Origin: a virus
IMG/VR virus record: IMGVR_UViG_3300015263_000944
Coordinates: 107,395 to 171,394 of that record
Direction: 5' to 3' (one strand)
Length of the DNA stretch: 64,000 nt
Shown here: one piece after another, positions 47,825-50,691 of the stretch
How positions within the stretch are numbered: position 1 is the stretch's first letter
Layout: each line of letters begins with the position of its first letter
The notes under the pieces: generated by a model
Database searches by the model: none
What the model was told of the DNA's origin: nothing
Seen by the model: only the letters and a program-made list of their open reading frames with translations
Program-made: the position numbers and the translations under genes

Positions 47825-48219
47825 ACGGGGCCTCTCTGATAATGGTGATTTCGCAGAGACAACTCCGCATTGAAATCATAAGAGAGATGACACACATTGT
47901 GTGCATACTCGAACGCCACAATCTTGCACATTCTCTCTATGTCATGCAGCAAGTGCGGCCAATATATCTTGTCAAAGTCGCCGACCCTTGCCTGAACCAT
48001 CGCCACAACATGCCATAGCCGTTCAATACTCCGTCCTTGACCACGAAAATTGCCTGCTTGGTTGCCAGTGTTCACTCCCTCCGCAAGCCAGAGAAAGTCC
48101 ATTCCAGCATCACACCATGCTTGCATGAAGGGCTTGTTCTGCAACAAACTCTGGTCGTCGCAGATGCGTTTGGTCAATTTGGCAAAAGCGATGTCGTGAT
48201 CTTTGGTCAGCATGTCCAT
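47815..48219 (-). CDS. Hypothetical protein
   Basis: 134 aa. Confidence 0.4.
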   Translation of the reverse strand: MDMLTKDHDIAFAKLTKRICDDQSLLQNKPFMQAWCDAGMDFLWLAEGVNTGNQAGNFRGQGRSIERLWHVVAMVQARVGDFDKIYWPHLLHDIERMCKIVAFEYAHNVCHLSYDFNAELSLRNHHYQRGPVWE

Positions 48220-50306
48220 TACAGCATCTTCTCCAAGTCGCCCACGGTGAGGACCGGGATGTTCTTCTCGATGGCTTTCTTCTCCTTGCTGGAGATGCTG
48301 CCAGAGCCGTGCTGCTTCACGACGTAGTTGGTCTTGCTGCCGACCGACGACTGGCAGTTGCCGCCCAACTCAGCGATCCGATCTTCCCAGTGCTTCTTGC
48401 CGAGATCGAAATCGCCAGTGAGTACAAAATTTGTACCGGACAGCTTGCCGGTCTTCGGCATCTCCAGTTCGACGTGGTTCGCCAGCAACGTGCCAATGAT
48501 GCCATCGTTCGTCGAGAAATACTTGACGATGTTCTCGGCTGTGGTCTCACCGATGCCTTCGACTTCGAGCAGTTGTTCCTTCGTGGCCGTGACGATCTTG
48601 TCGAAGTCGCCGAAGTGTGGCACCAACGCCTTGCCTGCCGTCTTGCCCGCACCGGGAATCCCCAGCGACGAGAAGAAGACCCAGCCCTGCACCACCAGCT
48701 TCTCTGAACGGGCCTTCTCGATGGCAGCACGCAGTTTGTCATCGTCCTTCTGTGGCTTGACCTTGAAGATCGTCGCCAGAGCCAACACCGCTTGGCGTTC
48801 GGAGAACCCGGCGTCGAGCAGGTCTTGTTCGGTGAGATCATACAAGGTGTCGAGTGTCTTTACCTTGCCGTGATGGATGATCTGGGCCATGGCGGCTCCA
48901 CCCAGTCCCTTGCAGCCCAACTGCTGCAAGTAGAAGATGAAGCCCTTGATGTGCTTGGCGGCACATGCTTCGTTCTCGCACAGCAAGTCTTTGTTGCCGC
49001 TGGCACTGACTTGCAGCTTCAGCTTGGACTGACAGGTCGGACACTGGGTCGGTGCGCCAATGTCCTTGACCGGCGTGAGAACTTCCATGATGTTCGGGAT
49101 GATCTTGCCGCCCTTCTTCGTCTTCACCTTCGCTCCGGGGCCAAGACCCTGTGCTTCCATCCAACCGTAGTTGTTGCAGGTGGCACGAGTGTTCTCGGTG
49201 TCGGCCAGAACGAACGGTTCGTCGAAGATCGCCGTGGGCACCACACGACCGGTGCGGCTGGCGTTCCATTCGATGGACGAGACGACGGCTTCAGCGGTTT
49301 CCTCTTCGTACTTCCACGCCAACGCACCCCGAGGCTCATTGACCGGATCATCGCCGGTATGACCCAACTCCTCTTGGAGTTCGAGATCGTTGACCTTGAG
49401 CACCACACCATCGGTATAGTATGGCAACTTCGGAGCGTGTGCCTCCATCATTGCCAGATGTTCGAACTTGTGGATGCGGACCTGAACGAAGAAGCCCTTG
49501 CCCTTGTCGTCCTGAAGGTTCAGACCTTCCTCGCTGTTGGCCCACTTCGCCCGTTCCACTTCCGTCTTGTAATACTTCTGCCAGTCATCGAAACCGGTGA
49601 TTGAGTAGAAGCCAATCCGCAGACGTGCATTCTCGGTTTCCTTGGGGTCGTCACGGCCCAGACAGCCAGCCGTGTAGTTGCGGGGGTTCTTGTAAGTGTC
49701 TTCGCCTTCCTCTTCCCGTTCGGCGTTGACCTTATCGAAGTCGTCGAACCAACATTCGATCTCGCCGTTGAGCGATAGCGTGAAGGGGTGCGGAAGCTGC
49801 TTGGGCACACCGAGGATGTTCGGGGCGTGGCGAGTGACATCGGTGCCGTTGATGCCGTCACGGGGCCGCAGACCGGCACTGACGAGTTTGCCCTTCACAT
49901 AGTTGACACGGATGGCAACACCGTCTCGCTTGTATGAACCGGCGAGGGTGAGCTTCTTGGGATCGACGCCGAGACGCTGAGCACATGCCTCGATCCACTT
50001 CTGGTAGATGGCTTCCTTCTCTTCCTGCGTGCCATCCGCCTTGGAGATCGAAGTCATCGGCGGATCGTGGACGACAACATCGCCCTTGGTCTTCGCCGTG
50101 GAAGGGCTGGTGCCCTCGAAGGCGATTGACTTGGGCCGACGAGTCTTCAATTCCCGATGGAGAGCATCATATTCGGGATCGGTGATCTCCGTACCGTCGA
50201 AATCTTCGACGTAGCCATTGAGTTCATATTCGGTGGCCGCATGAATGACCAGCTTTTCGAGTGCGTCCACATCTGCGAATGTACGGCTACCGACTGTGAT
50301 GCTCAT
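48219..50306 (-). CDS. ligA: NAD+-dependent DNA ligase (LigA)
   Basis: KxDG adenylation motif (SYKRDGVAI); Cys4 Zn finger CPTCQS...C..EAC; HhH (GIPGAGKTAGKAL); C-terminal BRCT. Likely start MSITVGS. Confidence 0.85.
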   Translation of the reverse strand: MSITVGSRTFADVDALEKLVIHAATEYELNGYVEDFDGTEITDPEYDALHRELKTRRPKSIAFEGTSPSTAKTKGDVVVHDPPMTSISKADGTQEEKEAIYQKWIEACAQRLGVDPKKLTLAGSYKRDGVAIRVNYVKGKLVSAGLRPRDGINGTDVTRHAPNILGVPKQLPHPFTLSLNGEIECWFDDFDKVNAEREEEGEDTYKNPRNYTAGCLGRDDPKETENARLRIGFYSITGFDDWQKYYKTEVERAKWANSEEGLNLQDDKGKGFFVQVRIHKFEHLAMMEAHAPKLPYYTDGVVLKVNDLELQEELGHTGDDPVNEPRGALAWKYEEETAEAVVSSIEWNASRTGRVVPTAIFDEPFVLADTENTRATCNNYGWMEAQGLGPGAKVKTKKGGKIIPNIMEVLTPVKDIGAPTQCPTCQSKLKLQVSASGNKDLLCENEACAAKHIKGFIFYLQQLGCKGLGGAAMAQIIHHGKVKTLDTLYDLTEQDLLDAGFSERQAVLALATIFKVKPQKDDDKLRAAIEKARSEKLVVQGWVFFSSLGIPGAGKTAGKALVPHFGDFDKIVTATKEQLLEVEGIGETTAENIVKYFSTNDGIIGTLLANHVELEMPKTGKLSGTNFVLTGDFDLGKKHWEDRIAELGGNCQSSVGSKTNYVVKQHGSGSISSKEKKAIEKNIPVLTVGDLEKML

Positions 50307-50373
50307 ATGACGATCTCCTGTTGAATTTGGCGGACCTCTCACATTGTATGGCACGGGAGAGACCCGGTTTAGG

Positions 50374-50691
50374 TCATTTCTTCTTCAGGCGATAGACGAT
50401 CCGACCCCTTGTAATGTCGTAGGGACTGAGTTCGATGTTCACTTCGTCGCCGGGGACGATCTTGATGCCGAATTGACGCATCTTCCCAGCCAGATGTGCG
50501 AGCACTTCATGGGTGGGGCCGTCCTTCTGCAACTGAATTTCGACTCGAAACTTTCCCTTCAGGGATTCGGTCACGACGCCTTCGACGACAAGCCCCTCTT
50601 CTTTCTTGGAGCTTCCGCCGCCACCGCCTTTGTTTCCGCTGTTTTTCGTGTTCTGCTTGGGGGCTGGTTTGCCCTTCTGTTTCTTGGACAT
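50374..50691 (-). CDS. infA: Translation initiation factor IF-1 with N-terminal basic extension
   Basis: [60 protein letters not shown]. Confidence 0.8.

Follow-up and report, generated by a model that had tools for sequence, protein, structure and literature searches.

An infA-type initiation factor and a full-length LigA ligase as co-inherited neighbours in a probable huge phage-like genome

What is a bacterial translation initiation factor doing in a viral genome, and does its position next to a DNA ligase gene mean anything? Both questions are raised by a 64-kb stretch of DNA from the IMG/VR record IMGVR_UViG_3300015263_000944 (positions 107,395 to 171,394 of that record); the whole of this stretch is called the window below, and coordinates are counted from its first letter. 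On its minus strand, the window carries a gene for an infA-type initiation factor IF-1 of 105 amino acids (aa) (50374..50691), followed in the direction of transcription by a gene for a 695-aa NAD+-dependent DNA ligase, LigA (48219..50306). A preliminary description of this DNA drew attention to the pair and to a nicotinamidase-like hydrolase encoded elsewhere in the window, and proposed that IF-1, together with a peptidyl-tRNA hydrolase (PTH2) and a CspA-type protein, serves the direct manipulation of initiation. The explanation favoured here, which as a whole we regard as probable rather than secure, is that the window belongs to a huge phage-like genome in which a conserved promoter would drive a run of genes beginning with IF-1 and LigA, that IF-1 acts as an initiation factor, and that the adjacency of the two genes is a matter of inherited gene order.

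The IF-1 gene starts with an ATG at 50691, with a GGAG 7 nt upstream, and its open reading frame (ORF) can also be read from a GTG at 50736. The same 105-aa IF-1 and 695-aa LigA gene calls are found on an identical JGI contig (Ga0247387_10000633). The preliminary assignment to IF-1 is borne out by profile searches: the protein matches PF01176 (5.9e-16) and scores 80.1 bits against TIGR00008 (infA), for which the equivalog cutoff is 61.15, over model positions 1-69 of 69. It also matches every solved bacterial IF1 in the PDB (4e-17 to 1e-8), with 44-56% identity, as against 20-32% to archaeal and eukaryotic a/eIF1A. An AlphaFold2 (AF2) model, built on 34 homologues, has a pLDDT of 86-95 over residues 31-100 and of 81 in the last block. 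Its strands (residues 34-43, 48-53, 60-67, 83-88, and 95-102) and helix (69-74) follow the order β1-β2-β3-helix-β4-β5 of an S1-like OB barrel. When the model is compared with the PDB by Foldseek, bacterial IF1s come first (target-normalised TM 0.89-0.92, rmsd 0.9-1.7 Å), with a/eIF1A structures next; the bacterial matches include 3i4o (TM 0.90, rmsd 0.9 Å) and E. coli IF1 bound to the 30S subunit (9fco_I, TM 0.92). The S1/OB fold, whose absence the preliminary description had named as the finding that would speak against its assignment, is thus predicted to be present.

The window protein shares with bacterial IF-1 (infA; TIGR00008/PF01176) the single S1-like OB domain, its topology, and its motifs. 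In particular, the GKMR, PGD, SPYD, and GRIxxR motifs are conserved, and Gly69, Lys70, Arg72, Gly96, Arg97, Ile98, and Arg101 are invariant in the alignments of its relatives and of cellular IF-1s. Residues were placed by alignment rather than from a docked model, and the statements on conservation rest on alignments with PDB entries, in which the E. coli IF1 chains are 71-72 aa long. In cellular IF1, Arg69 is essential for binding to the 30S subunit (review PMC4611024). Because the GKMR loop and the C-terminal GRIxxR are invariant, the phage-like protein is predicted to occupy the A site of the 30S subunit in the way cellular IF1 does. By supplementing or replacing host IF1, it would keep initiation going during infection, or turn it in favour of phage messages, and would act alongside the other translation genes of the element. 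These comprise 47 tRNA genes, all on the minus strand, of which 44 lie in one 16-kb array (ARAGORN), as well as PTH2 (PF01981, 9.7e-35) and a CspA-type protein with a cold-shock domain (CSD; PF00313, 3.8e-21), both of which are present as first described. Direct manipulation of initiation by the element is a reasonable inference. The window protein differs from bacterial IF-1 in being encoded on a huge phage-like element and in having a disordered Lys/Gly tail of approx. 28 aa and a 5-aa loop insertion, which are discussed below. We know of no initiation factor from a huge phage that has been characterised biochemically.

RNA-chaperone and antitermination activities have been shown for E. coli IF1, which also complements csp mutants (PMC3017892). 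The IF-1-like protein of the window might likewise work, as CspA does, chiefly as a general RNA chaperone or as a transcription antiterminator, and would melt the structures of long phage transcripts or of the precursor of the tRNA array, with the basic tail raising its affinity for RNA. The element encodes a CSD protein as well, and the tail of the window IF-1 is both disordered and basic. However, the protein scores above the infA equivalog cutoff and its C-terminal GRIxxR, which serves 30S binding, is invariant; a chaperone role alone would not demand conservation so specific to IF1. We therefore consider this reading unlikely as a full account, although the two activities are compatible in one protein.

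A protein search recovered an identical IF-1 and a set of proteins of 77-109 aa that are 55-75% identical to it, all from unannotated metagenome contigs. A total of 28 related loci were assembled from five looked-up relatives, a scan of JGI metagenomes with a LigA alignment, and the identical JGI contig. The contigs of the relatives measure 120-693 kb and include ones of 693,098 bp (ENA ERZ26692762, ctg84252), 361,837 bp, and 167,341 bp; the identical IF-1 is also found on a contig of 238,888 bp. In the closest pairs of this clade, the dN/dS of IF-1 is 0.04-0.2, which indicates purifying selection. In an unbootstrapped neighbour-joining tree, 18 of 18 clade IF-1s fall into one subtree of 21 tips, and for each of them the closest relative is another clade member or ties with one (65-91% identity among clade members, 63-74% to the best cellular IF-1). 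The other three tips are two Planctomycetota (Pirellulales and Planctomycetaceae metagenome-assembled genomes, MAGs) and one Actinomycetes MAG, all with the canonical loop; Planctomycetota as a donor or host lineage are thereby weakly hinted at. The cellular IF-1 loci include the GTDB MAG contigs L097 and L058. A GTDB-wide scan gave 595 or more cellular IF-1s from a wide range of phyla, with identities of 43-61% for the 80 loci kept, and revealed no donor lineage for IF-1; the names of IF-1 clusters were uninformative when used to name a host or donor.

Phage-borne IF-1 as such is not new. It has been reported that "Many phages carry ... initiation factors IF1 and IF3" among huge phages, for which a redirection of host translation has been proposed (PMC7162821). 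IF1 is also found in huge phages from a glacier foreland (PMC11748809), and the single-copy core genes of the Jug phages, whose genomes measure 360-402 kb, include one for a "translation initiation factor 1A" (PMC12880540). Of 50,697 deposited phage records, 36 contain IF-1 homologues, several of these being host contamination; an Acinetobacter "phage" (MD-2021a), for instance, was rejected on this ground, with its infA lying among leuBCD. The genuine records that were checked have genomes of at least 166 kb. Among the 36, the named phage groups are 15 Lak megaphages, six Bacteroides DAC/SJC phages (166-179 kb), Sinorhizobium phage Phosso (469 kb, with an annotated IF-1), and two uncultured huge phages. 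In BFVD, one close viral IF-1 was found besides eIF1A homologues of giant viruses. The rarity claimed at the outset thus holds in the sense that phage IF-1 is uncommon, but it is documented and has been in print since 2020 (PMC7162821, PMC12880540).

With the IF1s of huge phages (Al-Shayeb et al. 2020; Lak; LR756511; Phosso; Jug), the window shares a phage-borne infA, genomes of at least approx. 166 kb, and many tRNAs and translation genes. By contrast, the two such proteins examined, those of Phosso and LR756511, are canonical IF-1s of 72 aa that have neither the tail nor the loop insertion and are not encoded beside LigA. The clade IF-1 is a separate lineage at a different locus, even in comparison with its distant relative LR756511. 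What is new is this well-delimited phage IF-1 lineage, for which the loop insertion is a signature and the promoter is conserved; the system itself is not of a new kind. The clade offers a test case: an IF-1 lineage under purifying selection, with natural variants that do and do not carry a basic tail, with IF-1-less relatives that amount to natural "knock-outs", and with a conserved promoter that suggests when IF-1 is expressed.

The arrangement of the genes argues for joint transcription. IF-1 is transcribed before LigA, so that the adjacency noticed at first holds while the order then given, LigA followed by IF-1, is reversed. The two genes are separated by a 67-nt spacer (50307..50373, minus strand) that contains the AGGAG ribosome-binding site of LigA, and a terminator scan of this spacer found no terminator-like hairpin. 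The same-strand run continues past LigA into a 134-aa ORF with no Pfam match (47815..48219, minus strand), which shares one base at its start with the stop codon of LigA, in agreement with the JGI call. On the other side of IF-1 lies a divergent 146-aa ORF, also with no Pfam match (50836..51276, plus strand), which has 62-86% identical homologues at the same position in 14 related loci. Between the two starts, approx. 55 nt upstream of the IF-1 ATG, is a σ70-type promoter-like site, CTTTACA-17-TAGAAT (50746..50775, minus strand), with 10 of 12 consensus matches. Across six aligned upstream regions the CTTTAC and TAnAAT columns are invariant while their surroundings vary, and the coding sequences of these relatives are just 55-78% identical. 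The pattern CTTTAC-N17-19-TANAAT is present at just two places in the window, where 0.01 would be expected; the copy not belonging to IF-1 (33414..33442, minus strand) stands directly upstream of a 912-aa ORF similar to the major vault protein. These findings support a promoter of the housekeeping-sigma type that drives IF-1 and, with no terminator intervening, LigA, the two genes probably sharing a transcription unit. From it, the host housekeeping RNA polymerase would transcribe, probably early in infection, a run comprising the bacterial-type IF-1, the full-length LigA, and several small ORFs. With Rfam models, nothing but tRNAs was detected in 22100-64000, and thus neither a leader nor a riboswitch close to the operon. 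Upstream of the IF-1 promoter, at 50776..50835 near the start of the divergent ORF, another conserved block, TAGTTATTC, is invariant in five to six relatives; it could be a divergent promoter or an operator.

Two features set the window protein apart from most cellular IF-1s. The first is the Lys/Gly-rich N-terminal tail (codons 1-29; 50605..50691, minus strand), which extends approx. 28 aa beyond the infA model and the solved IF1s, rather than the approx. 40 aa first estimated. As had been noted, it is rich in Lys and Gly (eight and seven, respectively, in the first 29 residues), and residues 1-30 are predicted by AF2 to be disordered (pLDDT <57). Across the clade IF-1s the extension ranges from 0 to 27 aa, with a net charge of -3 to +7; several members are tail-less, and the window IF-1 has the longest and most basic tail. 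Basic N-terminal extensions are also seen in some cellular IF-1s, for example in a 102-aa Chloroflexota protein, and have been described for phage rpS21 (PMC7162821). A 2026 preprint on the mechanism of IF1 and IF2 was searched for a function of the IF1 N-terminus, with no match. The second feature is an insertion in the β2-β3 loop (residues approx. 53-59; approx. 50515..50535, minus strand), which can be measured as the span from FRV to xAH. This span is 12-19 aa long in 18 of 18 clade IF-1s and 8 aa long in 67 of 71 measurable cellular IF-1s; the insertion itself amounts to 5 aa in the window IF-1 and 4-11 aa across the clade. The loop insertion is thus a character of the clade; the N-terminal tail is not.

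A comparison with eIF1A suggests what such additions might do. The N-terminal tail of eIF1A threads towards the P site, stabilises binding to the 40S subunit, and makes the choice of start codon less stringent (PMC2731904). Like eIF1A/aIF1A, the window protein has, on the N-terminal side of an OB domain of the kind that binds the A site, a tail that is basic and unstructured. The likeness is one of analogy only: the OB domain of the window protein is of the bacterial type, with no helical subdomain and no C-terminal tail, and its N-terminal tail is of low complexity and unconserved in the clade. By this analogy, non-specific affinity for RNA or the ribosome may come from the disordered Lys/Gly tail and possibly from the loop insertion as well.

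It can also be asked whether the same features turn the protein against its host. In that case, the phage IF-1 would be a dominant competitor or decoy in the A site of the host 30S subunit, with contacts to IF2 and IF3 altered through loop and tail, and would cause either a shutdown of host initiation or a relaxed proofreading in favour of phage mRNAs. The loop insertion and the variable tail are indeed the sole systematic differences from cellular IF1, and both the effect of the eIF1A tail on start-codon stringency (PMC2731904) and the proposed redirection of translation by huge phages (PMC7162821) fit such a role. However, the phage genes examined have ordinary ribosome-binding sites of the GGAG type and ATG starts, and the tail is absent from several members of the clade; we regard the decoy as quite improbable. 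A more elaborate proposal along these lines sees in the clade IF-1 a specialised bacterial counterpart of eIF1A, by virtue of the clade-wide loop insertion and, in the window and some other members, of the strongly basic disordered tail: extending out of the A site in the direction of the P site and the mRNA channel, the tail would confer a higher affinity for the 30S subunit than that of host IF1, and relax proofreading for phage messages, with IF-1 as the first gene of an early operon under a conserved host-type promoter. Little credence is given to this proposal here.

The second gene of the pair encodes a full-length ligase, as originally claimed. The LigA ORF extends over 48219..50354 (minus strand), and its best start is the ATG at 50306 behind AGGAG. 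Its adenylation (PF01653, 9.8e-37), OB, helix-hairpin-helix (HhH), and BRCT domains exceed the Pfam gathering cutoffs, those of PF03120, PF12826, PF00633, and PF00533 included, and it matches phrog_3869 of PHROGs at 3.8e-118. It can be aligned from end to end with LigA of Thermus filiformis (1dgs, 6.6e-57). In this alignment, the lysine of the KxDG motif (YKRDG), GEI, DGVVLK, and ALAWKY correspond, as does the Cys4 zinc finger (CPTC...C...C, against CPEC...C...C in 1dgs). The D-x-x-Y-D motif of domain Ia (TDPEYD) aligns as well; a small insertion near the upstream Tyr/His pair prevents a confident placement of that pair. The protein thus has the six-module architecture of known LigA enzymes (phrog_3869; T. 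filiformis 1dgs; E. coli 2owo), that is, a probable Ia, adenylation, OB, zinc finger, HhH, and BRCT, together with the catalytic motifs, and on this architecture and these motifs it is called a divergent but full-length ligase of the LigA family. The divergence is apparent in comparison with deposited phage enzymes: it is at most approx. 32% identical to any phage LigA in INPHARED and falls below the NCBIfam cutoffs, whereas its clade relatives are 59-78% identical. LigA is common among phages, with matches in 1158 of 50,697 records, and is ordinary phage replication equipment. It would act independently of IF-1, sealing nicks as the huge genome is replicated and repaired, with NAD+ supplied by the host.

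Whether the proximity of the two genes reflects more than descent can be judged from the related loci. Mapped by tblastn, a conserved block runs through them in the order large FG-GAP-like protein, amidoligase, sigma factor, ORFs with no known family, GNAT, (SIMPL), metallophosphoesterase, (DUF707), divergent 146-aa ORF, IF-1, and LigA. IF-1 is located immediately 5' of LigA in 19 distinct members among 22 testable ones. The spacer is 3-28 nt long in 12 relatives and 62-67 nt in the window and L007; at least one extra ORF is inserted between the two genes in L010, L019, L022, L029, and L033. Three distinct members (L023; L025, which equals L028; and L032) retain the block and LigA and are devoid of IF-1. 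In L023 (9347..9892) and L025 (9318..9848) the slot of IF-1 is occupied by an unrelated ORF of 176-181 aa with a weak match to DUF6998, which appears frameshifted in L028 (716..937), and tblastn detected no IF-1 homologue in L032. Across the loci, pairwise identity in the IF-1 OB domain is correlated with that in LigA (Mantel r = 0.58, a value reached in none of 2000 permutations). At the level of sequence, the comparison shows IF-1 and LigA to be intact, subject to purifying selection, and co-inherited in the clade. They can be read as old, vertically inherited residents of a syntenic core, in which IF-1 would be a replaceable accessory in a fixed slot.

A functional coupling, in which the OB-fold protein is a nucleic-acid-binding accessory of the ligase, could draw on the short spacers of the 12 relatives, the retention of the pair in 19 members, and the correlated protein distances. 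Yet the whole 20-kb neighbourhood is syntenic, so that vertical descent suffices to account for both the adjacency and the correlated divergence; moreover, the pair is split by extra ORFs in some members, LigA possesses OB, HhH, and zinc-finger DNA-binding modules of its own, and no such pairing is seen in Phosso or LR756511. Because three relatives keep LigA in the absence of IF-1, the pairing is better explained as inherited gene order than as functional coupling, which we hold to be very unlikely.

The preliminary description also placed an isochorismatase- or nicotinamidase-like enzyme at 4161..4658. The ORF, the fold, and the catalytic triad were found; a start at the ATG at 4607, behind GGAGG, is likelier, which gives a cysteine hydrolase of 148 aa with an isochorismatase fold (4161..4607, minus strand), and its identity as a nicotinamidase is not established. 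The protein scores 23.1 bits against PF00857 (Isochorismatase; gathering cutoff 27) and has no NCBIfam match. Asp9, Lys70, and Cys103, the Asp-Lys-Cys triad, are invariant in a family of 18 members, and the AF2 model has a pLDDT of 90.6. Like nicotinamidase PncA and other PF00857 hydrolases, it has a Rossmann-like fold and this triad, which are common to the whole superfamily. Nicotinamidases rank first in Foldseek (6kua, E 2e-8, TM 0.71, 20% identity), with N-carbamoylsarcosine amidase, YecD, RutB, triuret hydrolase, and generic cysteine hydrolases within approx. 1-2 orders of magnitude. A profile search of PDB sequences favours isochorismatase-family hydrolases of Phytophthora (8rkz, 8e-7; also 8rl0), and JGI labels some family members "nicotinamidase-related amidase". 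A phmmer match to a cytochrome c555 trimer was discarded as a repeat-inflated artefact. The metal site of PncA is formed by Asp/His/His in a loop after β2. Alignment with PncA (1ilw) is limited to the N-terminal DxQxxF and Cys motifs, the intervening region of the hydrolase being approx. 30-40 residues shorter; the ligand-bearing segment is missing from the profile-to-PDB alignment, in which the metal site was therefore undetectable. In comparison with PncA (approx. 180-190 aa), the window protein is thus shorter and its metal-ligand loop cannot be aligned.

The hydrolase gene is part of a conserved run that consists of an 87-aa ORF, the hydrolase, an ORF resembling S-adenosylmethionine (SAM) methyltransferases (3547..4140, minus strand; Methyltransf_31, 1.6e-7), and PTH2 (3155..3550, minus strand; TIGR00283, 110 bits against a cutoff of 82). 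The ATG of PTH2 overlaps the stop codon of the methyltransferase-like ORF (ATGA). The run spans 3155..4930 (minus strand) in the window and recurs in two relatives (L012, 5690..7501; L013, 122..1933). As it is conserved together with PTH2, the hydrolase may act on a substrate related to tRNA or translation. LigA releases nicotinamide mononucleotide (NMN) and AMP, not nicotinamide. The idea that the hydrolase is a nicotinamidase which recycles nicotinamide-type products and so supplies NAD+ to LigA can appeal to the first-ranking Foldseek hit, the JGI labels, and the invariant triad, but other amidohydrolases score nearly as well and the PncA metal-ligand segment is missing. Since, in addition, the two genes are 44 kb apart, the ligase product is NMN, and the scan of window ORFs revealed no further NAD-salvage family, the link to NAD+ is unsupported, and the neighbours of the hydrolase are PTH2 and a methyltransferase-like gene. 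The recycling role strikes us as barely credible, and the nicotinamidase/NAD+ story should be dropped; the hydrolase belongs, if anything, with PTH2 and the tRNA array rather than with LigA.

Several observations count against the explanation favoured here. As three clade members have no IF-1 at the site, the factor would be dispensable there, and since the tail is not conserved in the clade, an essential function of the tail is argued against. A scan of the window with the promoter consensus is by itself not significant (two sites against 1.5 expected), and the case for the promoter therefore rests on conservation. LigA stays below the NCBIfam equivalog cutoffs (NF005932, 343.5 against 369; TIGR00575, 334.8 against 444.45). 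Finally, no capsid, portal, or terminase family was detected with Pfam and PHROGs among approx. 70 window ORFs scanned, an absence that constitutes weak evidence because the window makes up less than 10% of a genome of the expected size.

With no virion family in the scanned ORFs, the viral identity of the element rests on homology with LR756511.1 and on genome style. Almost all window genes are carried by one strand, the majority of ORFs have no family match, and a small sigma factor, HNH endonucleases, and an amidoligase are encoded. A 522-aa ORF (39269..40837) is 58.9% identical over its full length to a protein of LR756511.1, a deposited "uncultured phage" of 595,163 bp that we take to be a record of the Al-Shayeb et al. 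dataset. Eight further genes, among them those for the metallophosphoesterase and the sigma factor, are collinear between 35.4 and 59.2 kb of the window and the LR756511.1 region compared (270000..315000), which makes nine in total. LR756511 has neither LigA nor IF-1 at the matching position, and its canonical 72-aa IF-1 is encoded approx. 100 kb away. Related huge phages thus carry infA of different types at different loci, which suggests that the gene was independently acquired, or relocated, among them. Further database searches were negative: nucleotides 47500-51500 had no match among INPHARED phages, a 370-aa core ORF had none among phages by tblastn, and LigA peptide-pattern scans found no relatives of the clade in IMG/VR and did not find the clade in 185,579 GTDB species genomes. 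The clade appears only in raw metagenome assemblies. That the region is cellular, a chromosome or megaplasmid with IF-1 as the infA of that organism, would agree with the lack of virion families in the 64 kb and of the clade in IMG/VR, but is the least credible reading in view of the many ORFs with no family match, the 44-gene tRNA array, the near-single-strand coding, the absence of the clade from GTDB, the collinearity with a 595-kb phage genome, and the members that have no IF-1, which would be impossible for a sole essential infA. On the explanation favoured above, the window probably represents a section of a very large genome, phage or phage-like.

The remaining features of the window lie outside the IF-1/LigA locus. 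Small ORFs and HNH-type endonucleases are interspersed in the array of 44 tRNA genes (5978..22053, minus strand), and the other three tRNA genes called by ARAGORN are at 33517..33616, 40940..41014, and 41744..41814 (minus strand). Two tRNA genes are unusually long, tRNA-Ile(tat) at 10024..10114 (91 nt) and tRNA-Pro(ggg) at 33517..33616 (100 nt), and may be intron-bearing or mis-called. Rfam adds three tRNA-like matches on the minus strand beyond those of ARAGORN (34147..34237, 34533..34654, and 42334..42387); one of them is 122 nt long and so might contain an intron, and one is incomplete. The CspA-type protein has 67 aa (41992..42195, minus strand), and a CSD gene is found at a similar downstream position in L001, L002, and L009. 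The small sigma factor, encoded by a 204-aa ORF with regions 2 and 4 only (58555..59169, minus strand), is conserved throughout the clade; besides LR756511, its nearest phage matches are sigma factors of Bacillus and Clostridium phages. A large ORF is cut by the end of the window (60501..64000, minus strand; open through 63998) and corresponds to a 1431-aa gene call with a weak FG-GAP match on the JGI contig. The 912-aa ORF downstream of the second promoter-like motif (30608..33346, minus strand) contains the shoulder domain of the major vault protein (PF11978, 1.7e-18) and a Vault_3 repeat. A cluster of the ubiquitin-like-conjugation type (25889..29944, minus strand) comprises a ThiF/E1-like gene (25889..26584), a Prok-JAB gene (26581..27546), and a Prok-E2_D-like gene (28589..29944), all on the minus strand; one more ThiF member and one more JAB member were also found in the window, though not mapped to an ORF. 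On the strand opposite to nearly all other genes, a 960-aa ORF with two CHRD domains (3.7e-32) is encoded at 22686..25568 (plus strand).

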